DNA from: an uncultured Chloroflexia bacterium
Lineage (GTDB): Bacteria; Chloroflexota; Limnocylindria; QHBO01
Length of the DNA: 64,000 nucleotides
Direction of reading: 5' to 3'
Assembly: GCA_963805645.1 (NCBI GenBank)
Contig: CAWDVA010000005.1
Span: 62,113-126,112 of the forward strand
Shown: in pieces, positions 1,520-52,750 of the stretch
Layout of the letters: each line of letters opens with the position of its first letter
Position numbering within the stretch: position 1 is the stretch's first letter
Notes under the pieces: generated by a model
The model's database searches: none
Seen by the model: the letters and a program-made list of their open reading frames with translations, nothing else
What the model was told of the DNA's origin: nothing
Translations under genes and position numbers: made by a program

Positions 1520-3826
1520 TCAGTTCCGCAGCGGCTTGCCGGTCTTGAGGATGTGCCGGATCCGGTCGCGCGTCAGCCGTTCGCCAAGCAGGCGGAGGAA
1601 TGCCTCGCGCTCCAGGTCCAGCAGGTAGGCCTCGCTGACCGGCGTTCCCTCGGCGACATTGCCGCCGCTCATCACGGTTGCCAGCTCCAGCACGACCAGC
1701 CGGTCGTGCTCGCTCATCTGGTGACCGACCAGCTGGTTGTAGGTGAGCGACTCGGCCGCCGCGATGCCCCGGCGACCCAGCACCGGGATGCGGGTCTCGC
1801 CCGGGGCTCGATAGCCGGCGGCCGCCAGCGTGGCGGCGGTCCGGGCGGCATCCGCCCACTGGCGATCGGGATCGGCCGTGAGCGGGTCGCAGTCGCGCAG
1901 CAGGAGGTAGTCACGGGCGTCGGGCGCACCCATGGCCACGCGGGCCGTGGCGATGCCGGTGAACACCTGCTGGAAGATGGGGAAGAGGTCCGCACGCGCG
2001 CCCTCCGGCAGCTGCTCCGCGGCCCGTCGCGCCATGGCCGTGGACCCGCCCCCGGCCGGGATGAGACCCACGCCCACCTCCACCAGCCCGATGTACGTCT
2101 CCATCAGGGCCTGCGCACGGTCCGCGGCGAGAACCATCTCGGCGCCGCCTCCCAGCGTCCGCCCGCGCGGGGCGACGACCACCGGGATGGGGGAGTGGCG
2201 GATGGCCGTCGAAGCGGCCTGGAAGGCACGAATCGCCCGGTCCAGCTCGTCCCACTCGCCCTCCTCCGCCTCGATCAGCAGCAGGGCCAGGTTGGCGCCC
2301 GCGGAGAAGTCGGGGGCATCCGTGCCGATCACCAGGCCGTCGTAGCGGTCCGTGGCGAGATCGACCGCGCGCCGCACCATGCTGATGGTCTCCGGTCCGA
2401 TGATGTTCAGCTTGCCGTGCAGCTCCAGGCCCAGGATCCCGTCCGGCAGCTCGAGCATGGAGGCCGAGGAGCTGGTGGGCAGTCCCGCCGACGCGGCGGT
2501 TGCCCGGGCCGCAGGCAGGCCGAGCGCACCCGGACGCGCCTCCAGGGTCCGCAGGCCGCCATCGATGAAGCTCCAGCCACTGCCATTCGCGTAGTACGCG
2601 TCGGGGACCGCGGAGGCCGCCTCGCCCAGCAGCCGGGGTCGCGCATCGGGCCCCAGTGCGTCGAGAAGCTGGAACGGCCCCAGCGCCCAGCCGAAGCCCC
2701 AGCGCATGGCATCGTCGATGCTCCGGGCGTCATCAGCGATCTCCGGACCGGTCGCGACGGCATAGGCCAGCGCCGCGCTGAAGGTCCGGCGCAGGAACTC
2801 CCCGGCGGTGTCGTGCGCGGCCAGGAGCATGCCCATGCGCCGGGGGAGGTCCTGCTCGTTGCGCGCCATCTCGACCGCGCCCGACTGCACGCGCCGGCGT
2901 GGCCGATAGTCGCCGGTCGCAAAGTCGAGGGCCAGGATCTCGCCCTTCTCCTTGCGGAAGAAGCCCGCCCCGGTCTTCTCGCCCAGGGCACCGCGCTCCA
3001 CGAGCGAGCGCAGGAGCGGCGGCACGGCGAAGTCATCTCGCCGCGGGTCGTCGGGAAGATCCGCGTGGCAGTGGTCCGCGACGGCGACGGCCACGTCGAT
3101 CCCCACCAGGTCCAGGGTGCGGAAGGTGGCGCTCTTCGGACGGCCGATGAGTGTCCCGGTCAGCTCGTCCACCTCGTCGGGGCCCAGGCCGAGCTCCTGC
3201 GCGAGGCGCAGGGAGACCATCAGGCCGTGGACGCCCAGCCGGTTGGCGATGAACGCGGGCGTGTCGCGCGCCACGACGGTGCCCTTGCCCAGCAGCCGCG
3301 AGCCGATGTCGGCCATCCGGTCGACCACCGCGGGGTCCGTGCCGGCGACCGGGATGAGCTCCAGCAGACGGGTGTATCGGGGTGGGTTGAAGAAATGGGT
3401 GCCCAGGAACCGCGCCCGGAACGCCTCGCTCCGTCCCGTGAGCAGCGCATTGATCGAGATGCCGCTGGTGTTGGTCGACACGATCGGCGGACGTTCGCTG
3501 CCCGCCACGGCCTCCTCGACGCGCGCGAGGAGGTCGCGCTTGGGCTCGAGCTGCTCGACGATGGCTTCCACCACCCAGTCGGCATCAGCGACGGCATCGG
3601 CGAGACGGTCCAGGCCGTCCGTCCGGATGTTGCCGCGATCCGACCGCAGGTAGAACGGCGCCGGGCGCAGCTTGGCCGCGCGATCCAGCCCGGCACGGGC
3701 GACGTCGGCGTCGAGGTCGAGGAGGCTCACGCGCACCCCGTTTCCGGCCAGCAGCGCCGCAATCTGGGCTCCCATCGTCCCGGCGCCCAGGACGGCGACG
3801 CGGCGCAGACGCGCGATGTGGCTCAT
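1520..3826 (-). CDS. fadN: Bifunctional 3-hydroxyacyl-CoA dehydrogenase (N-terminal, NAD Rossmann GAGTMGAQIA) / enoyl-CoA hydratase (C-terminal), FadN-like
   Basis: Internal start MSHIARLRRVAVLGAGTMG in ORF 1520..3922(-); HCDH domain followed by crotonase fold. ATGA overlap with the TetR stop. Confidence 0.85.
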   Translation of the reverse strand: MSHIARLRRVAVLGAGTMGAQIAALLAGNGVRVSLLDLDADVARAGLDRAAKLRPAPFYLRSDRGNIRTDGLDRLADAVADADWVVEAIVEQLEPKRDLLARVEEAVAGSERPPIVSTNTSGISINALLTGRSEAFRARFLGTHFFNPPRYTRLLELIPVAGTDPAVVDRMADIGSRLLGKGTVVARDTPAFIANRLGVHGLMVSLRLAQELGLGPDEVDELTGTLIGRPKSATFRTLDLVGIDVAVAVADHCHADLPDDPRRDDFAVPPLLRSLVERGALGEKTGAGFFRKEKGEILALDFATGDYRPRRRVQSGAVEMARNEQDLPRRMGMLLAAHDTAGEFLRRTFSAALAYAVATGPEIADDARSIDDAMRWGFGWALGPFQLLDALGPDARPRLLGEAASAVPDAYYANGSGWSFIDGGLRTLEARPGALGLPAARATAASAGLPTSSSASMLELPDGILGLELHGKLNIIGPETISMVRRAVDLATDRYDGLVIGTDAPDFSAGANLALLLIEAEEGEWDELDRAIRAFQAASTAIRHSPIPVVVAPRGRTLGGGAEMVLAADRAQALMETYIGLVEVGVGLIPAGGGSTAMARRAAEQLPEGARADLFPIFQQVFTGIATARVAMGAPDARDYLLLRDCDPLTADPDRQWADAARTAATLAAAGYRAPGETRIPVLGRRGIAAAESLTYNQLVGHQMSEHDRLVVLELATVMSGGNVAEGTPVSEAYLLDLEREAFLRLLGERLTRDRIRHILKTGKPLRN

Positions 3827-4416
3827 CCGCCACCCACCCGTGGCGCGAGACCCTGGACGAACAGGCCCACGAAGGCATCGGCGATCTCGTCCACCGCGAG
3901 CGCCCCCTTGGGGCGGTACCACTGCGTGAACCAGTTGCAGACCGACAGGATGCCGATGCCGGCCAGGCGAACATCGACGTCGCGAATGGCGCCGGTGGCA
4001 ACCGCCTCGCCGATGGTCCGGCGCCAGGCAGCCTCGTACGCGTCGCGTCGCTCGATGAGCTGCGAGCGGCGTTCGGGGCTCAGGGAGCGGAGCTCGATCT
4101 GGATCAGGCTCATCTCGTCCGCGTGGTCGGCCGCGACGCCGAGATGGGCGTGTATGGCAGCGGTCAGGCGGTCCAGCGGGGGAGCGTCACCTTCCAGCAG
4201 CCCGACCACCCGCTCCTCGAGGAGGTCGAAGGTGCGGTCGAGGATGGACCACAGCAGGTCGTCCTTCGAGTTGATGTAGTGGTACAGGCTGCCGCGGTTC
4301 ATGCCCAGCGCCTCGGCAAGGTCCTGCATCGAGGTCGCGTGGTAGCCGCGCTGCCGGAAGAGCCGGGTGGCGGCGGCCCACAGCTCGGTCTCGCGGGGAC
4401 GGGTGATGGTCGTCAT
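3823..4416 (-). CDS. TetR family transcriptional regulator (probable fatty-acid degradation repressor)
   Basis: N-terminal HTH LFRQRGYHATSMQDLAEALGMNRGSLYHYINSKDDLL. Sits at the head of the fad operon, divergent from the HD-domain gene. Confidence 0.8.
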   Translation of the reverse strand: MTTITRPRETELWAAATRLFRQRGYHATSMQDLAEALGMNRGSLYHYINSKDDLLWSILDRTFDLLEERVVGLLEGDAPPLDRLTAAIHAHLGVAADHADEMSLIQIELRSLSPERRSQLIERRDAYEAAWRRTIGEAVATGAIRDVDVRLAGIGILSVCNWFTQWYRPKGALAVDEIADAFVGLFVQGLAPRVGGG

Positions 4417-4448
4417 GGGCCGATCGCGGCGCTCCACCTTGTGGTCAT

Positions 4449-4462
4449 CAAACGAACGTTTG
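4449..4462. promoter_or_regulatory. Inverted repeat CAAACG-AA-CGTTTG, candidate TetR operator
   Basis: Near-perfect 6-bp-arm palindrome about 33 nt upstream of the TetR ATG in the divergent intergenic region. Confidence 0.3.
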
Positions 4463-4540
4463 GTTGAGAAGAGATCGTAGCCCAGCCGTCAAGCGCGGTC
4501 GAGCCCCAACCGCTTGCGCAGATCGCGACAATGGGCCCCC

Positions 4541-5128
4541 ATGTCGCGCCTCGCCGATGCCTTCGACCTGGCCTCCCAGCTCCACGCCGATCAGCGGCGC
4601 AAGGCCACTGCGGTCCCGTACGTCGCCCACCTGCTGCAGGTCTGCGGCCTGGTGCTCGAGGACGGTGGAGACGAGGACGAGGCGATCGCCGCGCTCCTGC
4701 ACGACGCGCCGGAGGACCAGGGCGGTACCCGGACCCTGTCCCTGATCCGCGAACGCTTCGGCGACCGCGTGGCCGATATCGTGGCCGGATGCTCGGACGC
4801 CATGCCGGCCCCGGGCGAGGCGAAGGCGCCCTGGCGTGGGCGGAAGACGGCATACCTGGCCCATCTCGACGAGGCGGCGCCATCGGTCCTGAAGGTGTCG
4901 CTGGCGGATCGGCTCCACAACGGGCGCAGCCTGGTGGCCGACCTGGCCGTCACCGGGCCGGCCGTGTGGGACCGATTCAACGCCGGCCCCGCGGACCAGG
5001 CCTGGTTCTTTGGCGCCGCGCTCGCCGTGTACGAGCGCCGGCTGCCCGGCTCCTGGAACCTGCCGGCGTTCCGGGAGGTCGTGACCGCGATCCAGGGCGC
5101 CGTACTCGACATCGCGGATCTCGGCTAG
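4541..5128 (+). CDS. HD-domain phosphohydrolase, RelA/SpoT-hydrolase (Mesh1/small alarmone hydrolase)-like
   Basis: YVAHLLQV...DEAIAALLHDAPEDQGG matches the H...HD...D motif of (p)ppGpp hydrolase domains. Ends 54 nt before the cyclase gene. Confidence 0.6.
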   Translation: MSRLADAFDLASQLHADQRRKATAVPYVAHLLQVCGLVLEDGGDEDEAIAALLHDAPEDQGGTRTLSLIRERFGDRVADIVAGCSDAMPAPGEAKAPWRGRKTAYLAHLDEAAPSVLKVSLADRLHNGRSLVADLAVTGPAVWDRFNAGPADQAWFFGAALAVYERRLPGSWNLPAFREVVTAIQGAVLDIADLG

Positions 5129-5181
5129 ACGCCCGCGGAGTCCGCCCCCGGCACGAGTCGAGTGTCGAGTATTGTCGCGCG

Positions 5182-6426
5182 ATGGTTGTCCTGCGGCCCC
5201 TCGGGCGCATCTGGCCTCTCGTCAGGTCCTTCGGCGCCTATCCGGGTGAGACCGACGTCCACCGAGGGAAGCGGCAGATCGTCGTCGGGTACTTCTTCTT
5301 TGGTGTGCTGGCACGGGTCCCGTTCGCCGCCGGGGAGTTCGCCGGGGGTACACCGTGGGCGGGGGTTGTTGACGTAGGGGCTGTGCTGGTCGGCCTTGTC
5401 GGGCTCGGCGCACTGCGAATCCGGCCCGGCTGGTTCACGTGGATCGTCAACGCAGGGCTGTTCTTCCTGCTGGCGGAGGTCCTCGCGGCGACCCTCGTCG
5501 TGGGCGGGCTGGTTCCGTCGTCGCTGGTGATCCTGTTCGGGCTGATCGCGGTGGTCGGCGCCCTGATCGTCCTCGACACCTGGGCCGCGTTCGCATGGTT
5601 CGTGGCCTTCCTGCTCACCCTCACCCTGGCAGTGGTCCTTCCCGGCGTGATCCCGCCGATCTACGTGGTGGAGACAACCGCGGGCGACCTCGCGTTCACC
5701 GTAGTTGGCGTGGCTGCCTTCGTGTTCGCGGCAATGGCGTACTTTGTGCGCCAGCGGGATCGGTTGCAGGCCGAGTCCGACGGCCTCCTCCACAACATCC
5801 TCCCCGACGAGATCGCCGGGAGGCTCAAAGCCAGCCAGACCATGATCGCCGACGACTACGTGGCGGCCTCCGTGCTGTTCGCCGACGTGGTCGACTTCAC
5901 GCCGATGTCGGCCGAGATGTCGCCGCCCGAGCTGGTGGGGCTGCTGAACGCGGTGTTCACGACCTTCGACGGCCTCGTGAACGAGCTTGGGCTGGAGAAG
6001 ATCAAGACAATCGGAGACGCCTACATGGTCGCGGCGGGCGTGCCGCGGGAGCGGCCCGACCATGCGGACGCCATTGCCGACCTGGCGCTGCGGATCCGTG
6101 ACTGCGTGCAGACCACCACGTTCGCCGGACACAGGATCAGCCTGCGGATCGGCATCAACTCCGGACCGGTCGTTGCCGGGATCGTGGGCACCCACAAGTT
6201 CGCCTACGACCTGTGGGGTGACGTCGTCAACACCGCCAGCCGCATGGAATCAGAGGGCGTCCCGGGGTCGATCCAGGTGAGCCAGGCAACCTGCGAGCTG
6301 ATTCGGGATCGCTACCTGTGCGAACCCCGCGGCGGCATCCACGTCAAGGGGAAGGGAGAGATGAACACCTTCATCCTCGTTTCGAAGCGAGGCGACGAAG
6401 CCACGGTGGCGGACGCAGCCCGGTAG
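5182..6426 (+). CDS. Membrane-anchored class III adenylate/guanylate cyclase (about 6 TM segments + CHD)
   Basis: Internal start MVVLRPLG within ORF 4531..6426. Hydrophobic N-terminal half; C-terminal FADVVDFT...KTIGDAYMVAAG...GPVVAGIVG...YDLWGDVVNTASRMES cyclase motifs. Confidence 0.8.
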   Translation: MVVLRPLGRIWPLVRSFGAYPGETDVHRGKRQIVVGYFFFGVLARVPFAAGEFAGGTPWAGVVDVGAVLVGLVGLGALRIRPGWFTWIVNAGLFFLLAEVLAATLVVGGLVPSSLVILFGLIAVVGALIVLDTWAAFAWFVAFLLTLTLAVVLPGVIPPIYVVETTAGDLAFTVVGVAAFVFAAMAYFVRQRDRLQAESDGLLHNILPDEIAGRLKASQTMIADDYVAASVLFADVVDFTPMSAEMSPPELVGLLNAVFTTFDGLVNELGLEKIKTIGDAYMVAAGVPRERPDHADAIADLALRIRDCVQTTTFAGHRISLRIGINSGPVVAGIVGTHKFAYDLWGDVVNTASRMESEGVPGSIQVSQATCELIRDRYLCEPRGGIHVKGKGEMNTFILVSKRGDEATVADAAR

Positions 6427-6445
6427 CCTCGCGGTCCGCGGAGGG

Positions 6446-7753
6446 TCACGCGGGAGCAGCCAGCAGCTCGCGGATCACCTGCTCGGAGCCGGCGTAGTCT
6501 CCCTCGCCCCAGTGGGTGTGCCGGATCTGTCCCTGCCTGTCCACGAAGTAGAAGGCCGGCCAGTAGCGGTTGTGGTACGCGTTCCAGGTGGCGTACTGCG
6601 GATCGAAGGCGACCGGGAAGGTGACCGCGTCATCGGCGACCGCCTTGCGCACGTTGGCGATCTCCCGCTCGAAGCTCAGCTCGGGCGTGTGCACGCCAAT
6701 GACCACCAAGCCGTCCGCGGCGTACCGGTCGTACCAGGCCTTCACGTAGGGCTGGACGTGGATGCAGTTGATGCAGGCGAAGGTCCAGAACTGCACCAGC
6801 ACGACCTTGCCGCGCAGCGCGGCGAGCGTCAGCGGCTCCGAGTTGATCCAGTCGGTGATGCCGGCCAGCTCCGGCGCCGGGCCCAGGTTTTCCAGGGACA
6901 CCGATGCCGGCAGCGACGACGCCACGGGCGTCGGCAGGGGATTGCCCTCCGCGTCAGTCATGGGTGTCAGCGCAACGCCGGCCCGGGTTCCCATCTGGCC
7001 CAGCTCATTGCGCACCGCGGGCTGCTCCTCCACTGCCAGCAATGCCGAGCCCCAACCGGCGGGAAGCAGGTTGCCGACCGCGGTCTGGAGCGGGATGTCC
7101 AGGCCGGTGGCGACCACCAGCGCCACCGCGACCATGCTCGCGCCGAAGATCCGCTGCAGCCGGGCACGACGCTCGGGACGACCCAGGGCCTGGACCGCGG
7201 CCCGGCCCGCGCCGGCCACCAGGGCCAGGGGAATCGAAGCCCCCGCGACGTAGGCCAGCGCAATGGCCAGGGCCTGCAGCGACGGTCCGGAGGTGACCGC
7301 CACGGCGATCACCCCGGCCATGATGGGGCCCACGCAGGGCGCCCAGATCAGGCCGATGGCGCCGCCCAGGACGATCCCGCCTGCAAAGCCGGAGCGCGTC
7401 CCGGCTCCGGTTGACGACCCGGCGAGCGAGGTCCCGAGCCGGGTGAGCGACGCCGTGCGCAGCTCCAGCCAGCGACCCAGCGCAGGAACGAGGAGCACGG
7501 CGCCGAACGCGCCGAGGAGGAGGACGCTCGCCAGGCGCAGGCGGTCCGTGGTGAGGCCGGCAGCGGCGAGCGTCGACGCCAGCAGGACCGTGACGGTCAC
7601 GAACATCGCCGCGAAACCCACGATCAGCCCGGCCACCCGCCGGCGGCCGCCGGCGCCTGCGCTCCCGAGCAGGAGCGGCACGACCGGCAGCGTGCAGGGC
7701 GACAGGATCGTGAGCACCCCGGCGATGAACGCGAAAGCAATGACCAGCGCCAT
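6446..7753 (-). CDS. dipZ: Cytochrome c biogenesis CcdA-like membrane domain fused to thioredoxin-like (redoxin) domain, DipZ-like
   Basis: TM domain with the Cys pair (LSPCTL / WAPCVGP) followed by the WTFACINC thioredoxin motif. Confidence 0.8.
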   Translation of the reverse strand: MALVIAFAFIAGVLTILSPCTLPVVPLLLGSAGAGGRRRVAGLIVGFAAMFVTVTVLLASTLAAAGLTTDRLRLASVLLLGAFGAVLLVPALGRWLELRTASLTRLGTSLAGSSTGAGTRSGFAGGIVLGGAIGLIWAPCVGPIMAGVIAVAVTSGPSLQALAIALAYVAGASIPLALVAGAGRAAVQALGRPERRARLQRIFGASMVAVALVVATGLDIPLQTAVGNLLPAGWGSALLAVEEQPAVRNELGQMGTRAGVALTPMTDAEGNPLPTPVASSLPASVSLENLGPAPELAGITDWINSEPLTLAALRGKVVLVQFWTFACINCIHVQPYVKAWYDRYAADGLVVIGVHTPELSFEREIANVRKAVADDAVTFPVAFDPQYATWNAYHNRYWPAFYFVDRQGQIRHTHWGEGDYAGSEQVIRELLAAPA

Positions 7754-13278: not shown

Positions 13279-13304
13279 CGACGCCCGGTCTCAGGACCGG
13301 GCGT
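13279..13304. terminator. Perfect 11-bp-stem hairpin GACGCCCGGTC-TCAG-GACCGGGCGTC between convergent genes
   Basis: Read directly from sequence; overlaps the stop of the minus-strand cyclase-STAND gene. Confidence 0.45.
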
Positions 13305-16300
13305 CGCTCGTTCCAAGCTCCGACCGGATCCGAGCTGACGAAATGAGGTCGCCCTTCCCCTCGTAGAGTCGCAGGGCATCGGAGAAGTGCTGGTTGGCGT
13401 CCGAGGGATGACCGCACGCTCCCTCCGTTGCGGCCAGCGCCACGAGCATGTCTGCCTGAAGACGCGGCGCGTCTGCCCGCCGGGAGATCTCCACGGCCTC
13501 GCGGGCCAGGGCAACTCCCTCGTCCCGCTGCCCCTCAAGTGCCACGACCCGTGCCTTCACCGCGCGCCACATGGCCTGGCTGTCGATGTCATCCGGAGGT
13601 GCCAGATCCCGCACCTCATCAGCCAGCGCACCGGCGGCGTCGAGGTGCCCGGCTTCGATCTCGACGTGTCCCAGGAAGCCGGCGATCGTCGAGAGGAGGA
13701 ATTTCTCGCCCATGGCAGTCAGGGCATCGTAGTCGCGGCGGAGCTCACGCTCGGCTGCGGCCAGATCGCCGGCTAGCAGCTCGACGCGGGAGGAGTCAAT
13801 GGACGTGGACGCCGAAAGCACGCCGGCTCCCAGATCCTCGAGCGTGGCCCGCGCACCGCGGTACAGATCCCGGGCCTTCTCGAACTCGCCGCGCATGGCG
13901 TACAGCTGCGACAGGGCGGAGTTGATGGTGGCCACGGTCCGCTGATCCCCGTGCGAGGACCTTGCCAGCTCCTCGCAACGTTCGATCGCTTCCGGTACCG
14001 GGATGGGACCGTACGGCGCGGAGGTCGCATACCCGGACGCGCCGCGGGTCTGGGCCCGAAAGTCGCCGGCCAGCCGGGCATGCTCGATCACCTGGTCGGC
14101 CGCCCGGGCTGCATCGCCGTACTTGCCTTCGGTGCCGAACATCCCAAACCGCAACCGCCAAGCGAGCGCCAGACCGGCATGGTCGTCCATCGCCTCGAAG
14201 ATCGGAACAGCTCGATCCACCTGGGTCGCGACGGATTCCGCCCAGTCCGTGGCATCCGCGGTGTATAGCTGCAGCATGAGCGCCAGCAGGGACGCCTCGG
14301 CCTCGAGCCGGTCATCGGAGTGCTCCCGAGCACCCGCGATCGCCTCCTTCAGCACTCGCTCCGCGTCTTCGAACTCGCCCAGTTCCATGAGCGATTCGCC
14401 GAGGTCGGGCAGGATCGCCAGACGGTCGGGATCGCTCAGCGACCGCGTGGAGACCGCCCGCCGCAGGAGGCTCGCGGCCGCCGGCATGTCGCCACGCGCC
14501 TGGGCGCGCCGCCCCGCGCTGGAGAGCTTCTCCGACGCCCGGATGCCCACCCGTCGTGCGTGCTCGTCGATGGTGCCAAGCTCGCTCAGGTAGCGGTACG
14601 CCTGCTCGAGGTGATAGCCGTGGATCTCCTCGAACTCGTGGCCGGCGCGACCCTGGCGAAGGTTGAGCTCCTCCGCCCAGTCGACGAAACGTTCGTGGAA
14701 GTCTGCGCGGGCGCGCTTGAGAAGCCCGTTGTAGGCGGCGTCACGGACGAGGATGTGGGCAAACTTGTAGGCCGCTTCATCCTCGCCCGTTCCCGCGCTC
14801 GACGTGATCAGCTCACGACGCGCAATAGCCCTGAGATGGTCCGGCACCTGCGGCGATGCATCGGCGGGAACCAGCTCCGCGACGGCGGCCTGCGCGAATG
14901 TCTGGCCGATTACCGAGGCCGGCTCGATCACCCCGCGCTCCGTGGACTGCAACAGGTCGAGGCGAGCCGCCAGCAGCGCCTGGATGGTGGGCGGCACCTC
15001 CAGGGCGGTGAGGTCGCGCACCTGCTCCCAATGTCCGTCGGCCTGGCGCAACGATCCGTTGTCGATAAGCATCGAGAGCAGCTGCTCCACGAACAGCGGA
15101 TTGCCGGCTGCGGCGTCCACGATCCGCTGTTGCACGACCTCCGGCAGGCCGGTGCCGCCCAGCAGCCCGGCCACCACCATTCCGGCATCCGCATCGCTCA
15201 ACGGCCGCAGGACGAGGCGGACGGCACCATCGGCCAGCCCCCAGTCGGGATCCCGGTCGAGCAGCTCGTGGCGGCTGGTGCACAGCAGCAGCACGGGCGC
15301 GTGCTCGACGTTGGTGACCAGGTTCTGCAGCAGCTCGAGGAACGTCGTCTCGGCCCAGTGGATGTCCTCGACGATCATGACCACCGGCTGCGTGCCGGCC
15401 AGGTGCTCGAGGAACTTGCGGGCCCCCCACTGGATCTCGGGGACCGGGTAGGGCGTCGTCGAGAGCCCCATCACCGATGCCAGGCGGTCGACCACCTCCT
15501 CTGCCTCGATCGCGCTGCGGAGCTTGCCGAGGGCAGATTCGGCTCCCTCGTCGACGCCGATGCCGGCAGCATCACGCGCGGCCTCCCGCAGCGGCCAGAA
15601 CGTGATGCCGTCGCCATATGGCAGGCACTTGCCGCGGATGACCCGCGCCCCGGCGGCCGCGCTCGCGGTGAACTCGGCAATGAGACGTGACTTGCCGACG
15701 CCGGCATCCCCAACGACGGTCGCCAGCTCGCAGGAGCCCTGCTCGGTTGCGCGGGCGTACAGGCCGGCGAGCGCCGCCATCTCCTGTTCGCGGCCAACCA
15801 TGGGCGCGTCATTTCGCCTGTGGACCGCCTGGTCGACGGTGGCCACCCCGCGCAGGCGGAAGGCGGGGACCGGTTCCGCCTTGCCCTTGAGGGTCAGCGG
15901 TTCGACCTCGTCGACCTCGATCTGCTCGCGCGCGAGGCGGTAGGTGAGATCGCCCAGGAGCACCTCGCGCGCCCCGGCGGCCTGCTCGAGACGCGCGGCG
16001 GTGTTCACGGCGTCGCCCGTCACCAGCCGCTGGCCCAGGCTGGCATCCCCGGCAATCACCTCACCGGTGTTCACGCCGATGTGGCTTTCGAACGACACAC
16101 CCCAATCGGAGGCGATCTCGGCGTTGAGGGCGGGCAGGGCCTGCTGCATCTCCAGGGCGGCCCGGACCGCGCGGAGCGCGTCGTCCTCGTGGAGGGTGGG
16201 GAGCCCGTAGACCGCCATCACCGCATCGCCGATGAACTTCTCGACCGTTCCTCCGTGGCGCTCCAGGATGGGACGCATGACATCGAAGTAGCGCGACATG

Positions 16301-17202
16301 ACGGCCCGCAGGGCCTCGGGGCTGGGCCGGTCGCCCGATTCGGTGACGGGTCGCGGATCCGCGAAGACCAGGGTCACCGTCTTGCGCCGGTCCGCTGCTG
16401 GTGCGGTGCGGTCCAGGACGGCGCCGCAGGTGCCGCAGGTGACGAAATCGGCCGGGTTGTCCTCACCGCAGCTGGGGCAGGCGCGAGCGCCGTCGCTGGC
16501 CGCGTCCTTCGACTCGTTGACCGACGCCTCCGCCGCAGCCGAGACGGCCACCAGCCGGTAGGCCGTGATGGGTTCCTCGAGGCCCTTGGGGACGAAGGGG
16601 CCAATGGGCTCGACCTCTACGGCGTCGCGCACGATCTCGTAGGTCGAGCCGGCCAGCAGCGCCTCCGACGGCAGAGCGTTCTGCTCCATCACCGTGGCGA
16701 TGCGCATGGTGTCCCCGGTGAGCACGTGCTGGCCCTCGCTCGCCTCGCCGACGATCACCTCGCCCGTGGCGATCCCGGTCCGGTTGACCAGCTCGACGCC
16801 GTAGATTCGTTCGAACTGCTCGTTCAGCGAGCTGAGCGTCCGCAGGCTCTCGACAGCGGCCACCACGCCGCGCAAGGGATCGTTGTCATGGTGGGTCGGC
16901 AGTCCGAAGACCGCGACGATAGCGTCGCCGATGATCTTCTCGATCGTCCCCCCGTGCGACTCGAAGACGATGCGCATCTCGTCGAAGTAGCGGGTGAGGA
17001 GCTCGCGAAGCGACTCGGGATCCAGGCGCTCACCCAGCGCGGTCGAGCCCTTGAGATCCGAGGTCACGACAGTGACCGTCCGACGAATCTCTTCGGGAGC
17101 GCGGCTCGGATCCAGGACCGTTCCACAGTACCCACAACGTCGGAACCGATCCGGAACGGACCGGCCGCAGTGCGGACACGGCATTGCTTGCACCCGATTC
17201 AT
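13291..17202 (-). CDS. Multidomain signalling protein: two tandem (zinc-ribbon + class III cyclase) modules, then NB-ARC/AAA STAND ATPase, then TPR repeats
   Basis: CPHCG...CGYCG and CPSCG...CGTCG zinc ribbons each precede a CHD (FSDLKGST / FADPRPVT...GDAVNTAARLE). Walker A GDAGVGKSRL; long C-terminal TPR-like helical region. No C-terminal LuxR HTH. Confidence 0.85.
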   Translation of the reverse strand: MNRVQAMPCPHCGRSVPDRFRRCGYCGTVLDPSRAPEEIRRTVTVVTSDLKGSTALGERLDPESLRELLTRYFDEMRIVFESHGGTIEKIIGDAIVAVFGLPTHHDNDPLRGVVAAVESLRTLSSLNEQFERIYGVELVNRTGIATGEVIVGEASEGQHVLTGDTMRIATVMEQNALPSEALLAGSTYEIVRDAVEVEPIGPFVPKGLEEPITAYRLVAVSAAAEASVNESKDAASDGARACPSCGEDNPADFVTCGTCGAVLDRTAPAADRRKTVTLVFADPRPVTESGDRPSPEALRAVMSRYFDVMRPILERHGGTVEKFIGDAVMAVYGLPTLHEDDALRAVRAALEMQQALPALNAEIASDWGVSFESHIGVNTGEVIAGDASLGQRLVTGDAVNTAARLEQAAGAREVLLGDLTYRLAREQIEVDEVEPLTLKGKAEPVPAFRLRGVATVDQAVHRRNDAPMVGREQEMAALAGLYARATEQGSCELATVVGDAGVGKSRLIAEFTASAAAGARVIRGKCLPYGDGITFWPLREAARDAAGIGVDEGAESALGKLRSAIEAEEVVDRLASVMGLSTTPYPVPEIQWGARKFLEHLAGTQPVVMIVEDIHWAETTFLELLQNLVTNVEHAPVLLLCTSRHELLDRDPDWGLADGAVRLVLRPLSDADAGMVVAGLLGGTGLPEVVQQRIVDAAAGNPLFVEQLLSMLIDNGSLRQADGHWEQVRDLTALEVPPTIQALLAARLDLLQSTERGVIEPASVIGQTFAQAAVAELVPADASPQVPDHLRAIARRELITSSAGTGEDEAAYKFAHILVRDAAYNGLLKRARADFHERFVDWAEELNLRQGRAGHEFEEIHGYHLEQAYRYLSELGTIDEHARRVGIRASEKLSSAGRRAQARGDMPAAASLLRRAVSTRSLSDPDRLAILPDLGESLMELGEFEDAERVLKEAIAGAREHSDDRLEAEASLLALMLQLYTADATDWAESVATQVDRAVPIFEAMDDHAGLALAWRLRFGMFGTEGKYGDAARAADQVIEHARLAGDFRAQTRGASGYATSAPYGPIPVPEAIERCEELARSSHGDQRTVATINSALSQLYAMRGEFEKARDLYRGARATLEDLGAGVLSASTSIDSSRVELLAGDLAAAERELRRDYDALTAMGEKFLLSTIAGFLGHVEIEAGHLDAAGALADEVRDLAPPDDIDSQAMWRAVKARVVALEGQRDEGVALAREAVEISRRADAPRLQADMLVALAATEGACGHPSDANQHFSDALRLYEGKGDLISSARIRSELGTSDARS

Positions 17203-21770: not shown

Positions 21771-21824
21771 GGCGGCGGCGCGGGGCATGCGGTACCCTAG
21801 GACGAGATGCCCGGAGGTGATGCC

Positions 21825-22754
21825 GTGACCGCGACCATGGACGAATCTGCCCGCGCTGAGGCGTTCTACGCGCACGTCTCCGGCGGCGGCAAGGTCGAGG
21901 CGGACGACCCGATGCCGGACGACTACCGTGCCGCCGTCCTCAAGTTCGTCGAGATGCACGCCAACTCGGAGCTCATGGGCGTGCTGCCGGAGCGCGAATG
22001 GATCCTCCGCGCGCCGACCCTCAAGCGCAAGCTGGCACTGACCAGCAAGGTCCAGGACGAGGTGGGCCATGCCCAGCTCCTGTACCGCGTGGCTGAGGAC
22101 CTGGGCAAGCCTCGTGAGCAGATGCTCGCGGACCTGATGGATGGCAAGACCAAGTTCCACAACGTCTTCCATTACCCAACCGAGTCGTGGGCCGATGTCG
22201 GCATCATCGCCTGGCTCGTGGACGCAGCAGCGATCGTCTCGCAGCAGGCGCTGCGAGACTCCTCGTACGCGCCGTACGCACGGACGATGAAGAAGATCTG
22301 CTGGGAGGAGAGCGTCCACATCATGCACGGGCGCGACGTGGTGCTCACCATGATGAACGGGACCGACTCCCAGCGCGCGCTTGTCCAGGATGCCCTGGAC
22401 CGATGGTGGGGCCCGCTGATGCAGATGCACGGCCCGCCCACCGACCCCGCGAAGGATCGGGACCTGATCTGGAAGATCAAGGCCAAGAGCAACGAGCAGC
22501 TTCGCCAGGAGTTCCTGTCCATCTACGTCCCGCGGATCCTGGAGCTGGGCCTGACGCTCCCGGACCCGGAGCTGCTCTACGACGAGGCGGAGGGTCGCTG
22601 GCACTACACCGAACCCGACTGGAACGAGCTCCGGTCAGTGGTGACCGGACACGGGCCGCGCTCGCAGGAGCGCCTCGCCTTCCGCCGCCAGAACTACGAC
22701 GCGACCCAATGGGTTCGTAACGCGATCCTGGGAGCTGCGCCCGCGGCGGCTTGA
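21825..22754 (+). CDS. paaA: 1,2-phenylacetyl-CoA epoxidase subunit A
   Basis: Di-iron ferritin-like oxygenase motifs (EMHANSELMG...EVGHAQLL...EESVHIMHG). GGAGG RBS before the GTG at 21825; alternative ATG at 21807 or 21837. Confidence 0.85.
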   Translation: MTATMDESARAEAFYAHVSGGGKVEADDPMPDDYRAAVLKFVEMHANSELMGVLPEREWILRAPTLKRKLALTSKVQDEVGHAQLLYRVAEDLGKPREQMLADLMDGKTKFHNVFHYPTESWADVGIIAWLVDAAAIVSQQALRDSSYAPYARTMKKICWEESVHIMHGRDVVLTMMNGTDSQRALVQDALDRWWGPLMQMHGPPTDPAKDRDLIWKIKAKSNEQLRQEFLSIYVPRILELGLTLPDPELLYDEAEGRWHYTEPDWNELRSVVTGHGPRSQERLAFRRQNYDATQWVRNAILGAAPAAA

Positions 22755-22817
22755 CCCATGCCCCCCGCGCCGCGGTCTGCCCGTCCCATTCCGCGGGCCG
22801 CGCGGTACCCTTCCCGC

Positions 22818-23174
22818 ATGGAGCAGCAGACGCAACCACGCGACAGGGTGTGGGAGGTCTTTTCGCAGGAAGCGGAGGGGGACCCCATGGTCCATTCGGG
22901 CAGCGTCCGGGCACCCGACGATGAGCTCGCCCTCCACTACGCCCGCGAGTTCTACGGCCGCCGGCAGGAGAGCCACCGCCTGTGGGTGGTTGACCGGGCG
23001 GAGATCACCGAGCTGGATGACCCGGACCTGCTGAATCCGCCCTTCGATCGGTCGTTCAAGCGCCCAGGCGGGTACATCATCAAGCACAAGCTCGAGGCAG
23101 CCAAGGCGCGGGTGGGGGCGCGGGCTGCGCAGTCGGACGACGAGTCGACCGCCGCAGGAGAGCCGGTCGCGTGA
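22818..23174 (+). CDS. paaB: 1,2-phenylacetyl-CoA epoxidase subunit B
   Basis: WEVFSQEAEGDPMVHSGSVRAPD...LHYAREFYGRR matches PaaB. Confidence 0.85.
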   Translation: MEQQTQPRDRVWEVFSQEAEGDPMVHSGSVRAPDDELALHYAREFYGRRQESHRLWVVDRAEITELDDPDLLNPPFDRSFKRPGGYIIKHKLEAAKARVGARAAQSDDESTAAGEPVA

Positions 23175-23953
23175 CCAGCATCCCGGTACCCGACACTGCG
23201 CTCCCGCGCGACGCCGTCGCGGAGCTGCTGCTGAGCCTCGCTGACGACGAGTTCGTCATCGGCTTCTGGGACTCGGAGTGGACCGGGATCGCGCCGATGC
23301 TCGAGGAGGATGTCGCGACCAGCTCCATCAGCCAGGACGAGATCGGGCACGCCAGGGCGCTTCACGAGCTCCGCGCCCAGCTGACCGGCGAGGACCCTGA
23401 TCTGGTCGCCTTCGGGCGGAACCCCGACGAGTATCGGCACGCGGCCCTGCTGAACCATCCGCGCACCGACTGGGCGTTCACCGTCGCCCGCCGCTACCTG
23501 TACGAGACCGCGGATGCCGTGCGTCTCGAGGCGCTGGCCCTGTCCACCTATGAGCCGCTCGCCCTGCTTGCGGCCAAGATGCGGCGCGAGGAGCGGTACC
23601 ACCTCATGCATCTTGGCGCCTGGATGGAGCGGCTGGCGCGCGGCGGTCCTGACACGCATCGTCGCCTCGCGGAGGCGCTCGTCACCCTGTGGCCCGACGC
23701 GCAGACGGTCTTCACGCCACTCGACGGTGAGCGAGCACTCGTGGAGAGCGGTGTCCTGCCCGAGCCGATGGTGGCGCTCCGACGCCGCTGGGCGAAGGAG
23801 ATCGGAGAGACGCTGGGTAGCCTGGATCTCCCGGTGCCGGACGCCACCCTGGAACCGACGGCCGACGGGCGCCGTCGCCGGACCGACGACTTTCGCTGGC
23901 TCCACGGCGAGTTCACGATGGTCGCGCGCTCGGACCCGGAGGCGACGTGGTAG
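23171..23953 (+). CDS. paaC: 1,2-phenylacetyl-CoA epoxidase subunit C
   Basis: GTG start overlapping the paaB stop. ADDEFVIGFWDSEW...SQDEIGHARALH ferritin-like. Confidence 0.75.
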   Translation: MTSIPVPDTALPRDAVAELLLSLADDEFVIGFWDSEWTGIAPMLEEDVATSSISQDEIGHARALHELRAQLTGEDPDLVAFGRNPDEYRHAALLNHPRTDWAFTVARRYLYETADAVRLEALALSTYEPLALLAAKMRREERYHLMHLGAWMERLARGGPDTHRRLAEALVTLWPDAQTVFTPLDGERALVESGVLPEPMVALRRRWAKEIGETLGSLDLPVPDATLEPTADGRRRRTDDFRWLHGEFTMVARSDPEATW

Positions 23954-24453
23954 CCACCCGTGACCCGCGCGAGACGGTCGTCTGGGCGGCCCTCGACGAG
24001 GTGTCCGATCCCGAGATTCCCACCATCAGCGTCGTGGAGCTGGGGGTCATCCGCGGTTTCGCCTTCGAGGAGCAGGCCGGTGGTGGCGAGCGCCTGCGGG
24101 TCGAGCTGTTGCCGACCTTCGTCGGCTGCCCGGCCATCGACATCATGCGCGAGCAGGTGGGGGAGCGGCTGCGGGCGCTGGGTGTCGCCGACGACGTGAT
24201 CGTCGAGCTCAGCTTCGCCGAGCCGTGGACATCTGAGCGGATCTCGGAGGCGGGCCGCGAGAAGCTGCGCGGCAGCGGCTTCGCCCCGCCGGCGGTGGGC
24301 GGCAGCCTGCTGACCATGGTGGACGACACGCCCTGCCCGTACTGCGGATCGCGCAACACGTCGCTGGACAATCCGTTCGGTCCGACCCTGTGCCGCGCCA
24401 TCTACCACTGCGACGACTGCCACCAGCCGTTCGAGCAGTTCAAGGCGATTTGA
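23947..24453 (+). CDS. paaD: Phenylacetate-CoA oxygenase subunit PaaD
   Basis: DPEIPTISVVELGVI...TFVGCPA and C-terminal CPYCGS...CDDC Cys cluster. Confidence 0.75.
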   Translation: MVATRDPRETVVWAALDEVSDPEIPTISVVELGVIRGFAFEEQAGGGERLRVELLPTFVGCPAIDIMREQVGERLRALGVADDVIVELSFAEPWTSERISEAGREKLRGSGFAPPAVGGSLLTMVDDTPCPYCGSRNTSLDNPFGPTLCRAIYHCDDCHQPFEQFKAI

Positions 24454-24939: not shown

Positions 24940-24988
24940 CGCGTAATCGGCCGGAGATCCATCGCCCGGTATCATCCGTATCAAGGCC

Positions 24989-25798
24989 ATGAACCAGATC
25001 GCCTCGTCTCTCCCCGGCGCAGCGCCCGTCCCCGACATCGCGGCGGTCGAGCGACGCATCGGACGGCTCCGCATCTACAACGTTGTCATGGGCTTCCTGC
25101 ATCTCGTGCAGGGTGCCGCCATCCTGGTGCTGGCCAACGACTTCGCCCTGCCGGTGACGGCGTCCTTCATGGCCGGACCACCCGGCTCCGGCCTCGTTCG
25201 CGACACGACCCTCTTTGACCTCCGCTTCGGGTGGGCCATCGCAGCGTTCCTGTTCCTCTCCGCGGCGGCGCACTTCCTGGTCGCGAGCCCGGGCATCTTC
25301 GGCTGGTATCGCGCCAACCTGCTGCGCGGCCGCAACTACGCGCGCTGGATCGAGTACGCGTTCAGCTCATCGCTGATGGTGGTGCTGATCGCCATGCTGC
25401 CCGGGATCAGCGACGTGGCCGCCCTGGGTGCGATCTTCGGGGTGAACGCGGCGATGATCCTCTTCGGCCTGCTGATGGAGCACTACGAGCAGCCAGGCCG
25501 GCCGAACTGGATGAGCTACTGGTTCGGTGTGCTCGCGGGCGCGGTGCCCTGGATCCTCATCGGCATCTACCTGTGGAATCCTGGATCGGAGGTTGCGGCA
25601 CCCGCCTTCGTGTACGCGATCTTCATCTCGCTCTTCGTCTTCTTCAACAGCTTCGCGGTCAACATGGTGCTGCAGTACCGGCGCGTGGGGCCGTGGCGCA
25701 ACTACCTGTTCGGCGAGTCGGTCTACATCGCCCTGTCTCTGCTGGCCAAGTCGGCGCTGGCCTGGCAGGTCTTCGCCGGGACCCTCGCACCGCGCTGA
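24989..25798 (+). CDS. Heliorhodopsin (7TM retinal protein, inverted topology family)
   Basis: RIYNVVMGFLHLVQ...NYARWIEYAFSSSLMVVLIAML...IFGVNAAMILFG...FFNSFAVNM...LSLLAKSALAWQVFAGTLAP. TM7 lysine in the SLLAKSALAW context and a TM3 glutamate, as in characterised heliorhodopsins. Confidence 0.8.
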   Translation: MNQIASSLPGAAPVPDIAAVERRIGRLRIYNVVMGFLHLVQGAAILVLANDFALPVTASFMAGPPGSGLVRDTTLFDLRFGWAIAAFLFLSAAAHFLVASPGIFGWYRANLLRGRNYARWIEYAFSSSLMVVLIAMLPGISDVAALGAIFGVNAAMILFGLLMEHYEQPGRPNWMSYWFGVLAGAVPWILIGIYLWNPGSEVAAPAFVYAIFISLFVFFNSFAVNMVLQYRRVGPWRNYLFGESVYIALSLLAKSALAWQVFAGTLAPR

Positions 25799-47983: not shown

Positions 47984-48400
47984 ATGGCCGCGAACGACAA
48001 GATGGACGAGCTGCGCCGGGTTCCGCTCTTCTCGGGACTGGGCAAGCGCGAGCTCGCCGAGCTGGGGACCCTCGCCGACGAGATCGAGGTCGCGGACGGC
48101 CGTGCCCTGACACGTGAGGGCGAGTCGGGCCACGAGTTCTTCGTGGTACTCGACGGCCACGTCTCGGTCGAGATCGATGGCAGGCGCGTCGCCGAGCTGG
48201 GCCCCGGCGACTTCCTGGGGGAGATTGCGCTGATCGACGGCAAGTCGCGCACCGCCACCACCCGTGCCGTGGGCGCCACGAAGCTGCTCGTGGTGGGCCA
48301 CCGCGAGTTCCACCAGCTCATGGCCGACTTCCCGACGGTCCAGACCGCCGTCCTGCAGGCGCTCGCCGCACGGGTCCGGCGCAACGAGCAGCTCGGCTAG
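47984..48400 (+). CDS. Stand-alone cyclic-nucleotide-binding (CAP effector) domain protein
   Basis: EFFVVLDGHVSVEIDGRRVAELGPGDFLGEIALIDGKSRTATTRA cNMP-binding signature; no output domain. Confidence 0.7.
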   Translation: MAANDKMDELRRVPLFSGLGKRELAELGTLADEIEVADGRALTREGESGHEFFVVLDGHVSVEIDGRRVAELGPGDFLGEIALIDGKSRTATTRAVGATKLLVVGHREFHQLMADFPTVQTAVLQALAARVRRNEQLG

Positions 48401-48407
48401 CCACCGC

Positions 48408-48866
48408 ATCGTTCGCCGCGCCCGGCCCGACGAGGCGGCCGATCTGCGGGAGCTCGCACACCGCTCCAAGGCCCACTGGCCCTACAGCACCGAGTTCCTG
48501 GAGGCTGTCCGACCCCTCCTGGTGCTCGAACCCGCCGACATCCGCCGTGACGAGGTCCACGTTCTCGAGCTGGGCGGCGCCCGCGTGGGCTGGCACCGGG
48601 TCCGCTTCGACGGCGACCGCGCCGAGCTCGAGGACCTGTGGGTCGAACCCACCTTCATCGGCCAGGGGCATGGCCGGGCGCTGTTCGAGCACGCGGTCGG
48701 GGTGGCGCGGCGCGGCGGTGCGAACCGCCTAGAGTGGGACGCGGAGCCGTTCGCGGCCGGGTTCTACGCCGCCATGGGAGGACGCGAGTTCGCCCGGTCG
48801 CCCTCTGCCGTGGTCCCGGGTCGCACGCTGCCGCGGATGCGGCTGCGGCTCGCACCCGATGCCTGA
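48408..48866 (+). CDS. GNAT family N-acetyltransferase (start codon uncertain)
   Basis: IRRARPDEAADLRELA...WVEPTFIGQGHGRALFEHAV acetyl-CoA-binding motif. No canonical start between the upstream stop at 48400 and the conserved N-terminus. Confidence 0.5.
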   Translation: MVRRARPDEAADLRELAHRSKAHWPYSTEFLEAVRPLLVLEPADIRRDEVHVLELGGARVGWHRVRFDGDRAELEDLWVEPTFIGQGHGRALFEHAVGVARRGGANRLEWDAEPFAAGFYAAMGGREFARSPSAVVPGRTLPRMRLRLAPDA

Positions 48867-48884: not shown

Positions 48885-49634
48885 TCAGGGCACGCGGAAC
48901 AGGTAGACCCCGAAGCCCAGGCAGTCGCGCCCGCCGCGCAGGTATCGGTCCCGGACCAGCCTGGCCTGCTCCACGAAGGCGTCGCGATCGGGGTCATCCG
49001 GGTGCGCGGCGGCCCAGCGGTCGACCGTCGCGAAGTACCCGAACTCGTACCGGTCCCAGTCCTGCTGGCTCGCAGAGCCGCTCCACAGCGGTTGCATGTC
49101 CAGGTCCACCCCGGCCATGGCGTTGAGGTCGTGGGTCGTCATCTCGTCGCGCCGCGCTCCGAGCAGCCCGAGGTACTCGGCGCCGGGCTCCGTGCGCCAG
49201 TAGCCGTCTCCCACCAGGAGCTGGCCCCCAGGCACCACGTGGCGCTCCAGGTCCTCCAGGAGCGCCCGGAAGCTCGGGTGCTCCCACCCGGGGCCGATGC
49301 ATACGACCAGGTCGAACGGCTCCGGCGACTCGTAGGTCCGGGCATCTCCCTCCACGATCTCGGCCGTCCCCGCCGGGAGTGCGGCCACCCGCTCTCGTGC
49401 GACGGTCAGCAGATGGGGCGACACCTCCACGCCCACGCCCCGAGCGTCGTAGCGCTCCACGATGCGAGCCAGCAGCTCCGCCTTGCCGCAGCCCAGGTCC
49501 AGGACCCGGGCCGCCGGCGCGAGCGCCACCGCCTCGACTGCGCGATCCACCGTGTCCGCGGAGAGCGGGTTCATGATCGCCATCTCCCCGTGGGCGATGG
49601 CGGAGAAGCGCTGTCGCAGCGCCTCGTCCATCAT
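48885..49634 (-). CDS. Class I SAM-dependent methyltransferase
   Basis: VLDLGCGKAELL...VGVEVSPHLL...EIVEGDA motifs. Last gene of the urate operon; ATGA overlap with uricase. Confidence 0.7.
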   Translation of the reverse strand: MMDEALRQRFSAIAHGEMAIMNPLSADTVDRAVEAVALAPAARVLDLGCGKAELLARIVERYDARGVGVEVSPHLLTVARERVAALPAGTAEIVEGDARTYESPEPFDLVVCIGPGWEHPSFRALLEDLERHVVPGGQLLVGDGYWRTEPGAEYLGLLGARRDEMTTHDLNAMAGVDLDMQPLWSGSASQQDWDRYEFGYFATVDRWAAAHPDDPDRDAFVEQARLVRDRYLRGGRDCLGFGVYLFRVP

Positions 49635-51642: not shown

Positions 51643-51993
51643 CTAGCTGCCGCGATACGTGGAGATCCCGAACGGGGTCAGCAGCAGGGGAATGTGGTAG
51701 CTGCGGTCGGGATCGTCGATGCGGAAGCCCACCGCCATGTTCTCGAAGAACCCGTCACGATCCTCCGTGTCGAGCCACGCCGCGACGTCGAAGACCAGCT
51801 GGTAGCTGCCCGGGGTGAGCTCGCCGGGCAGGAGGGAGCGCACGCGCCCGTCGCCATCGGTCTCCACCTCGGCCAGCAGCTCCGGCTGGCCATCGCCGCC
51901 CAGGCGGAAGAGTGCCACCGGGAATCCGGCCGCAGGCTCGCCAGTTTCCAGGTCCAGGACGTGGGTCGAGATGGTCGAAGGCCCGTCGGCCAC
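51643..51993 (-). CDS. 5-hydroxyisourate hydrolase (transthyretin-like)
   Basis: STHVLD N-terminal motif and C-terminal YRGS tetrapeptide. Confidence 0.8.
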   Translation of the reverse strand: MADGPSTISTHVLDLETGEPAAGFPVALFRLGGDGQPELLAEVETDGDGRVRSLLPGELTPGSYQLVFDVAAWLDTEDRDGFFENMAVGFRIDDPDRSYHIPLLLTPFGISTYRGS

Positions 51994-52007
51994 GTTATCC
52001 TCCGCAC

Positions 52008-52430: not shown

Positions 52431-52432
52431 CC

Positions 52433-52747
52433 GTGGCCTGGCTGATCCTGGGCGTGGTGGTGGCCCTCTTCGTCCTCGTGGTATTCCGGGTGCTGACACT
52501 GCTGGTGGGGCTGGTGGCCATCATCCTGGCCTTGCTGGCACTCGTGGCATTCGGTGAATGGCGGGACCGCCATCGGCAGCGCGGAATCCACAATCCGGCT
52601 GCAGCATTCGACCCGAACAAGCCCAACGAGTACGGACGTTCGAGCCAGCAGCACTGGGAGCCACCCACCCCCTACATCGACCATCCCGACGGCGGGGGAG
52701 CCCCTCCCGGCGTGGACCGCGGCGATGACCGCCCACGACCCAGGTAG
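52433..52747 (+). CDS. Small membrane protein (single/double TM), hypothetical
   Basis: GTG start overlapping the upstream stop; VAWLILGVVVALFVLVVFRVLTLLVGLVAIILALLALVAF. Confidence 0.4.
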   Translation: MAWLILGVVVALFVLVVFRVLTLLVGLVAIILALLALVAFGEWRDRHRQRGIHNPAAAFDPNKPNEYGRSSQQHWEPPTPYIDHPDGGGAPPGVDRGDDRPRPR

Positions 52748-52750
52748 CCC

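Follow-up and report, generated by a model that had tools for sequence, protein, structure and literature searches.

Predicted alarmone hydrolase and membrane adenylate cyclase genes in a variable chromosomal slot beside a fad operon in Limnocylindria

The window, i.e., the whole 64,000-nt stretch of DNA analysed here (contig CAWDVA010000005.1 of an uncultured Chloroflexia bacterium), carries two adjacent genes on the same strand, the first for a protein with a single HD domain (4541..5128) and the second for a probable membrane adenylate cyclase (5182..6426). Based on the comparison with related contigs, these are quite probably two ordinary signalling enzymes that act independently and occupy a variable chromosomal slot, with the tandem being a strain-level configuration rather than a conserved module. 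The HD protein, a predicted small alarmone hydrolase (SAH), would use Mn2+ to remove the 3′-pyrophosphate from (pp)pGpp, yielding GTP, GDP, or GMP, and would help to reset the stringent response; the Cya-like cyclase would make cAMP from ATP. The slot lies between a fad operon headed by a PsrA/FadR-like TetR gene and a DsbD-thioredoxin gene, and its genes would be gained, lost, and exchanged by homologous recombination. Both genes thus appear, as judged from sequence, to be uncharacterised members of well-studied families, and their adjacency is not conserved.

Slot content across related contigs

An exact look-up of the HD protein in the contig index gave no match, and close relatives of the locus were reached through its homologues and cluster members. 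They share a frame in which the fad operon and its TetR gene are followed by the slot and then by a DsbD-redoxin gene, and the content of the slot varies. Its right edge is formed by a reverse-strand gene (6446..7753) that joins a DsbD/CcdA-type membrane domain to a thioredoxin/redoxin domain, with Pfam matches to DsbD_TM, Redoxin, and AhpC-TSA, and that occurs at the same position in contigs L081, L082, and L086–L089. Four slot states, separated by precise indels, are found among these six contigs. The HD and cyclase genes stand in same-strand tandem in the window and in L089. The cyclase gene alone is present in L088 and L087, where window positions 4520..5163 and 4494..5130 are missing, respectively; the sequence just past the HD stop codon is kept in L087. 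In L086 the HD gene alone is present (95% overall nucleotide identity), with window positions 5148..6286 missing and a 47-aa 3′ cyclase remnant left. As for L081 and L082, which are contigs from different samples, they combine the HD gene with an XRE/HTH_3 gene placed on the opposite strand where the cyclase gene would be. L083 and L085, with HD proteins of 76% and 67% identity, have other neighbours.

The tetR orthologue of L087 (7099..7714) is split into two open reading frames (ORFs) that carry TetR_N and TetR_C_24 separately, and several fad genes of this contig are fragmented as well. These split genes reflect either assembly frameshift errors or pseudogenisation, and single indels taken from L087 call for caution.

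The wider set of SAH homologues supports the same conclusion. Of 167 such loci, downstream sequence of 1.3 kb or more is available for 112, and the tandem is seen only in L089 (0 of 112 other loci). No adjacent cyclase gene was found at 80 SAH loci of the genome collection, three of which have a cyclase domain within 6 kb; in L007, two ORFs lie between the SAH gene and a cyclase fragment. At 80 SAH loci of the metagenome collection the only cyclase domain belongs to L142, where it is part of a 1077-aa STAND-type protein encoded divergently, ~750 nt upstream. The first-pass annotation of this DNA presented the two genes as nucleotide-messenger enzymes in tandem, which implies functional coupling, and named a lack of conservation in related genomes as one observation that would refute it. 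The pair is indeed not conserved, and the implied coupling is not supported: outside the window it is kept in L089 only, and L086–L088, L081, and L082 each lack one of the partners.

Sequence divergence also varies sharply along the locus. According to nucleotide identity between the window and L088/L089, the cyclase gene is nearly the same (98–100%), followed by the HD gene (92%) and by tetR, fadB, and dsbD (82–86%). Synonymous divergence (dS) is 0.017–0.022 for the cyclase gene, 0.18–0.21 for the HD gene, and 0.47–0.53 for tetR, i.e., the cyclase value is ~25-fold below that of tetR and ~10-fold below that of the HD gene. The comparison with L086 reveals the opposite pattern, with flanks (4241–4600 and 6461–6801) 100% identical, the HD body at 92–95%, and the cyclase remnant at ~85%. 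These values outline a putative recombination tract (approximately 4600..6460) that comprises the HD body, the cyclase gene, and the 3′ intergenic region and has a history different from its flanks. Such unequal divergence of neighbouring genes implies that slot alleles and gene content have been exchanged among related strains, and the HD and cyclase genes therefore appear to lack a single common history. Since the exchange takes place among close relatives, the tandem would be a strain-level configuration.

The pair may also be read as an operon dedicated to linking the removal of alarmones with the synthesis of cAMP, e.g., during exit from the stringent response, with cross-talk between the messengers under selection. 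Its arrangement is compatible with that. The cyclase gene directly follows the HD gene on the same strand, as the first-pass annotation had stated, with a gap of 53 nt (5129..5181) instead of the 54 nt given there. No terminator or promoter consensus site was found in a scan of 4300..6600; in a Chloroflexota genome with 70% GC, the sigma-70 consensus tells little. The spacer contains no inverted repeats and no terminator-like or unusually stable hairpin, and its RNA folds no better than shuffled sequence (z-score of +1.27 against shuffles). The last ~30 nt of the spacer travel with the cyclase gene in L087 and L088, which have no HD gene. From this arrangement we infer co-transcription of the two genes, which the spacer permits rather than proves.

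A further point in favour of coupling is that SAH genes lie within 3 kb of cyclase genes or genes for cyclic nucleoside monophosphate (cNMP)-binding proteins at three other Limnocylindria loci. In the metagenome-assembled genomes (MAGs) L001, L004, and L006, whose SAHs are 60–65% identical to that of the window, a cNMP-binding gene is located 2–2.4 kb downstream of the SAH gene (the neighbours concerned lie at 8183..10130 in L001, 7162..7950 and 8850..10878 in L004, and ~3456..3968 in L006). A Pyr_redox_3 flavin monooxygenase-like gene accompanies it in L001 and L004, whereas the L006 contig does not extend that far. A gene for a 262-aa soluble cyclase is also present in L004, ~0.6 kb downstream of the SAH gene on the opposite strand. 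However, these neighbours lie on other strands, and the genes in between are unrelated and differ from locus to locus. In the window itself, cNMP genes are also found ~8 kb (STAND cyclase) and 43 kb (cNMP-binding protein) from the SAH gene, and chance proximity is therefore to be expected fairly often. We read these data as a lineage rich in cNMP signalling genes, with no evidence of a specific SAH association. Together with the occurrence of either gene without the other at the same locus (L086, L087, L088, and L081/L082), the absence of the tandem elsewhere, and the ~10-fold difference in synonymous divergence between the same genomes, this makes the coupled operon quite improbable.

Several observations nevertheless weigh against the view of two independent enzymes in a variable slot. 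One further genome, L089, retains the same-strand tandem with its 53-nt gap, an arrangement that would fit an operon. The weak but recurring proximity in L001, L004, and L006 may point to some loose association of SAHs with cNMP genes. The tract that diverges from L086 covers both the HD body and the cyclase gene, so that the two could have been imported jointly in a single event. Moreover, the relatives are metagenome assemblies, and one or another indel might have arisen during assembly, although variation of the slot is found consistently in four independent assemblies.

The hydrolase and the cyclase

The HD gene runs from an ATG at 4541 to a TAG at 5126–5128 and encodes 195 aa, one fewer than the 196 first reported; the motif quoted for it (VPYVAHLLQV...AIAALLHDAPED) is present. 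Regarding family membership, the first-pass annotation had described the protein as SpoT/Mesh1-like and suggested a profile search that sets RelA/SpoT hydrolases against HD-type cNMP phosphodiesterases. In such a search it falls with the RelA/SpoT hydrolases, and its HD_4 domain, full set of six motifs, and predicted fold bear out the original description. According to Pfam, HD_4 (PF13328, E=1.2e-22, residues 7–135) is the sole significant family above its cut-off, the generic HD family remains under its own cut-off, and there is no second domain. NCBIfam spoT_relA models match the protein with their N-terminal hydrolase part only (E=7e-16). Its homologues are 187–220 aa long and carry PF13328 alone. 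The protein thus has the makeup of a stand-alone SAH, i.e., an HD_4 domain of ~180–200 aa without synthetase, TGS, or ACT domains.

The best relatives in a PDB sequence search are RelH of Leptospira levettii (7QOE, 4.6e-46) and RelH of Corynebacterium glutamicum, or RelHCg (7QOC, 6.6e-24), followed by Listeria Lmo0812, the hydrolase domains of long Rel/RelA/SpoT proteins, and human and Drosophila Mesh1. The residues of motifs HD1–HD6, namely R20, H30, H54-D55, E58-D59, D123(-R124), and N127, are invariant in 23 aligned homologues. They align to R24, H34, H58-D59, E62-D63, D122, and N126 of RelHCg, the six catalytic motifs whose roles have been described (PMC9293644). The AlphaFold2 model of the protein has a pLDDT of 94.8 and a pTM of 0.91, and all of the top 20 PDB matches reported for it by Foldseek are stand-alone HD_4 chains (RelH, PaSAH, Mesh1, and the unannotated Listeria Lmo0812). 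Among these, 7qoe has an E-value of 9.7e-12 and 7qoc a TM-score of 0.88 with a root-mean-square deviation of 2.3 Å, with PaSAH and Mesh1 coming next. As for selection, the ratio of nonsynonymous to synonymous divergence of the HD gene is 0.17–0.19 against two relatives, which indicates purifying selection.

The HD1 motif is kept in the Mesh1-L subgroup, which includes RelHCg, and is reported to be absent from pbcSpo, pbcSpo2, and divSpo (PMC5954133). The window protein has the HD1 arginine (R20), and its two nearest PDB relatives are both RelH proteins. Mn2+-dependent hydrolysis of (pp)pGpp has been shown for RelHCg and for the L. levettii enzyme, RelHLl (PMC5954133, PMC9293644). Judged by its profile, motifs, and model, the protein is predicted to be an orphan SAH of the RelH/Mesh1-L type, with the activity of a Mn2+-dependent (pp)pGpp 3′-pyrophosphohydrolase.

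The HD start codon lies within an imperfect inverted repeat, CGCGACAATGGG / CCCCATGTCGCG (4524..4548). L089 and L086 retain the outer arms of this repeat (CGCGACA / TGTCGCG), and L081/L082 do not. The repeat might occlude the start codon in mRNA or be there by chance.

Given that the HD superfamily includes cyclic (di)nucleotide phosphodiesterases and that the gene adjoins a cyclase gene, the HD protein might instead degrade the product of the cyclase, with the two forming a synthesis/degradation pair. However, all PDB sequence and fold matches down to E ~1e-3 are SAHs or long RelA/SpoT homologue (RSH) hydrolases, with no phosphodiesterase among them. The six RSH motifs are intact, including the guanine-stacking arginine of HD1 and the ED pair of HD4, and the HD gene occurs without the cyclase gene and vice versa. 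An HD-type cNMP phosphodiesterase was accordingly rejected on the HD_4-only profile and the RSH-only PDB matches, and we regard this reading as highly improbable.

Another option is that the SAH has a protective or accessory role, either as an immunity or antitoxin-like hydrolase that removes the toxic alarmones (pp)pApp or (p)ppGpp produced by toxSAS or by interbacterial toxins, or as a promiscuous Mesh1-like phosphatase, e.g., one acting on NADPH. This would explain the patchy presence of the gene, which comes and goes at the strain level, and both PaSAH and the human Mesh1-NADPH complex are among the fold matches. SAHs have been described that serve as antitoxins of toxic alarmone synthetases or confer self-resistance to them, and a promiscuous orphan SAH has been described as well (PMC7229694, PMC9765508). 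On the other hand, hydrolysis of (pp)pGpp has been shown for the RelH proteins of L. levettii and C. glutamicum, the nearest relatives of known structure. Moreover, neither a RelA_SpoT synthetase domain nor a toxin gene was found beside the SAH gene or in the scanned ORFs of the window, and PADLOC reports no defence-system match for the HD protein. A toxSAS-SAH toxin–antitoxin pair in particular was rejected, as the neighbours are TetR and the cyclase and no RelA_SpoT domain is present in the scanned ORFs. A protective role is thus unlikely, and (pp)pGpp hydrolysis is the function we predict.

The second gene of the slot (5182..6426, +) encodes 414 aa with six predicted transmembrane (TM) helices, a helical linker, and a catalytic domain, as in class IIIa membrane adenylate cyclases of the Rv1625c/Cya type. 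The first-pass description of a same-strand adenylate cyclase with six TM helices and a cyclase homology domain agrees with the Pfam match to Guanylate_cyc (PF00211, E=1.6e-57), with the match to Cya, and with hydropathy, according to which a hydrophobic block at residues 33–190 fits six TM helices. The alignment with full-length Mycobacterium tuberculosis Cya/Rv1625c (PDB 7yzi, 1e-54) covers residues 93–403 and begins inside the membrane region. In the PDB sequence search the protein also matches both halves of mammalian membrane cyclases (AC9, AC8, and AC5, ~1e-65). The segments FADVVDFT, KIKTIGDAYM, and YDLWGDVVNTASRM hold both metal-binding aspartates, the ATP-specifying Lys/Asp, and the transition-state Asn and Arg in a single chain, and they line up with the equivalent residues in C1 and C2 of AC9. 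With all catalytic residues in one chain, the cyclase would act as a homodimer. By its sequence, it is predicted to belong to a well-known type of class IIIa membrane adenylate cyclase that functions as a homodimer, and it would synthesise cAMP.

GC content at third codon positions (GC3) of the cyclase gene is 0.88, equal to that of its neighbours. Foreign origin by composition was rejected, this GC3 being native to the lineage. The low dS of the gene against relatives points to exchange within the lineage. An assignment to the Pycsar anti-phage system was rejected too: PycC matches are weak and generic (4.2e-11, compared with 1.6e-57 for the Pfam family and 1e-54 for Cya), the Lys/Asp pair is of the ATP type, and no effector is adjacent. 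PADLOC likewise gives only generic domain matches for the cyclases and for the cNMP-binding protein.

The TetR operator and other genes of the window

On the left the slot adjoins a TetR-family regulator gene (3823..4416, −) that encodes a PsrA/FadR-like protein of 197 aa (Pfam TetR_N 2.4e-16 and TetR_C_24 3.1e-33) and heads a beta-oxidation operon. Its start is the ATG at 4416, which is invariant in seven relatives, with the GTG at 4437 not conserved; the protein is also called as 197 aa in L081, L088, and L089. The downstream fad operon includes a FadB-like 3HCDH/ECH gene and a thiolase gene in the window and continues with acyl-CoA dehydrogenase and acyl-CoA synthetase genes in relatives. 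Regarding orthology, the TetR protein remains below the NCBIfam equivalog cut-offs, the best match being FadR with 49.2 bits against a cut-off of 200, and PsrA having E=0.0022. It is no orthologue of the curated FadR or PsrA models, although it may work like these regulators.

The gene pair diverges from this TetR gene across an operator-like palindrome, as was noted at first pass: tetR is on the reverse strand, and the palindrome (4449..4462) stands in between. Its sequence, CAAACGAACGTTTG, can be written as CAAACG-AA-CGTTTG or CAAAC-GAAC-GTTTG, and its centre precedes the tetR ATG by 39.5 nt and the HD ATG by 85.5 nt. It has a single exact copy in the window, with no further copies within two mismatches and three-mismatch matches at chance level. 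All 14 of its bases are invariant across seven related loci, where the intergenic flanks vary, and it is retained whether the divergent neighbour is the HD gene or the cyclase gene. PsrA of Pseudomonas aeruginosa, a TetR-family protein, represses fadBA5 at the operator motif C/GAAAC-N4-GTTTG/C, and long-chain fatty acids relieve the repression (PMC5722320). The palindrome fits this consensus and, as there, adjoins beta-oxidation genes, which makes it a probable TetR operator. Its position upstream of the regulator's own gene suggests autoregulation, and the simplest reading would be an autoregulatory operator of the fad-operon TetR.

Since the slot abuts this invariant operator and no terminator separates the two genes, transcription of whatever gene it holds plausibly starts in the divergent promoter region. 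Fatty acids or acyl-CoA could then derepress the slot genes along with the fad operon, and control of the divergent gene or genes by the TetR is what we infer. More tentatively, a PsrA-like, fatty-acid-responsive TetR may control the fad operon and whatever occupies the slot (SAH, cyclase, or both) from one operator in Limnocylindria, a proposal that goes further and that we consider possible but doubtful. If true, (p)ppGpp clearance and cAMP production would respond directly to how much lipid is available, and the messenger that is coupled to the lipid signal would change from strain to strain through recombination.

Two other genes of the window belong to cyclic-nucleotide signalling, both as pointed out in the first-pass annotation. 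The double-cyclase STAND-type signalling protein (13291..17202, −) has 1303 aa and consists, according to Pfam, of a zinc ribbon, a cyclase domain, a second zinc ribbon (DUF7577), a second cyclase domain, an AAA_16 NTPase, and TPR. Its two cyclase domains are 45–47% identical to each other, and orthologues of 1301–1305 aa are syntenic at the same relative position in L087–L089. The stand-alone cNMP-binding protein (47984..48400, +; 138 aa; cNMP_binding 2.2e-18) is encoded 43 kb from the HD gene and matches cyclic-nucleotide-binding (CNB) domains of the PKA, PKG, and MloK1 types in the PDB. It is followed, in another frame, by a GNAT acetyltransferase ORF (48264..48866), which overlaps it when read from its first possible start. 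The layout recalls mycobacterial cAMP-dependent acetyltransferases and looks like two separate genes; a split Rv0998-like enzyme of this kind is not supported, as a PDB sequence search matched neither ORF to an Rv0998-like protein.

No further cyclase or cNMP-binding domains were found in the window by tblastn or Pfam. The notable density of cyclic-nucleotide components claimed for the window therefore stands as a count, three genes in 64 kb. As for its being notable, the background is ~1.25 Mb of SAH-centred loci from many taxa, in which the window domains as queries gave five cyclase-domain and three cNMP-binding matches, and which is crude and taxonomically mixed.

The window has a GC content of ~70% throughout and is core chromosome, as it encodes ThrRS, IF3, L20, PheRS, TyrRS, EF-G, RuvC/RuvA, a class A PBP, and MutS2. 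Its EF-G is 83–86% identical to proteins named Candidatus Limnocylindria (Chloroflexota), and the closest SAH loci in the genome collection are Limnocylindria MAGs. A heliorhodopsin gene (24947..25798, +; Pfam PF18761, E=1.1e-99) lies directly upstream of the threonyl-tRNA synthetase gene in this soil Limnocylindria genome. A purine/urate catabolism cluster (49631..54139) comprises uricase, an OHCU decarboxylase ORF that additionally carries a GNAT domain, HIU hydrolase (transthyretin family), and an amidohydrolase. Genes resembling those of the PaaA–D phenylacetate oxygenase are found at 21801..24453, and a PPK2 gene at 62362..63219.

Comparison with known systems

The variability of the slot guards against over-interpretation of an attractive "(p)ppGpp-cAMP module". 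What it offers instead is a picture of orphan alarmone hydrolases as accessory genes that vary between strains of an uncultured class of soil Chloroflexota, in line with what was reported for Corynebacterium, and a small regulatory hypothesis in which a PsrA-type operator would be common to a fad operon and a swappable slot for signalling genes.

The known system closest to the HD protein is RelH (7QOE; 7QOC/7QOD), with which it shares a single HD_4 domain of ~190 aa, all six hydrolase motifs, and C-terminal helices beyond the core HD fold. In structural alignments it is 42% identical to RelH of L. levettii and ~31% to that of C. glutamicum, with TM-scores of 0.78–0.88. The gene also appears to be dispensable and is patchily distributed, like Corynebacterium relH, which has been lost often and independently within that genus (PMC5954133). 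In contrast to RelH, the window protein is a predicted enzyme and comes from Chloroflexota (Limnocylindria), and a context divergent from a fad-operon TetR is not described in the RelH literature examined.

As for the regulator, a TetR protein heading beta-oxidation genes next to an operator of the matching form is what PsrA/FadR-type systems have in common with the window, whereas the similarity of the window TetR to the curated models is weak.

Regarding the cyclase, M. tuberculosis Rv1625c/Cya is reportedly tied to lipid and cholesterol utilisation (PMC8856561), and the window cyclase gene adjoins a beta-oxidation operon. The two proteins share an N-terminal six-TM region, a helical linker, and a single complete catalytic domain (7YZI/7YZK; eLife 2022, PMC9433096). 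They differ in that the window protein belongs to another phylum and its allele appears to have been recently exchanged among related strains.

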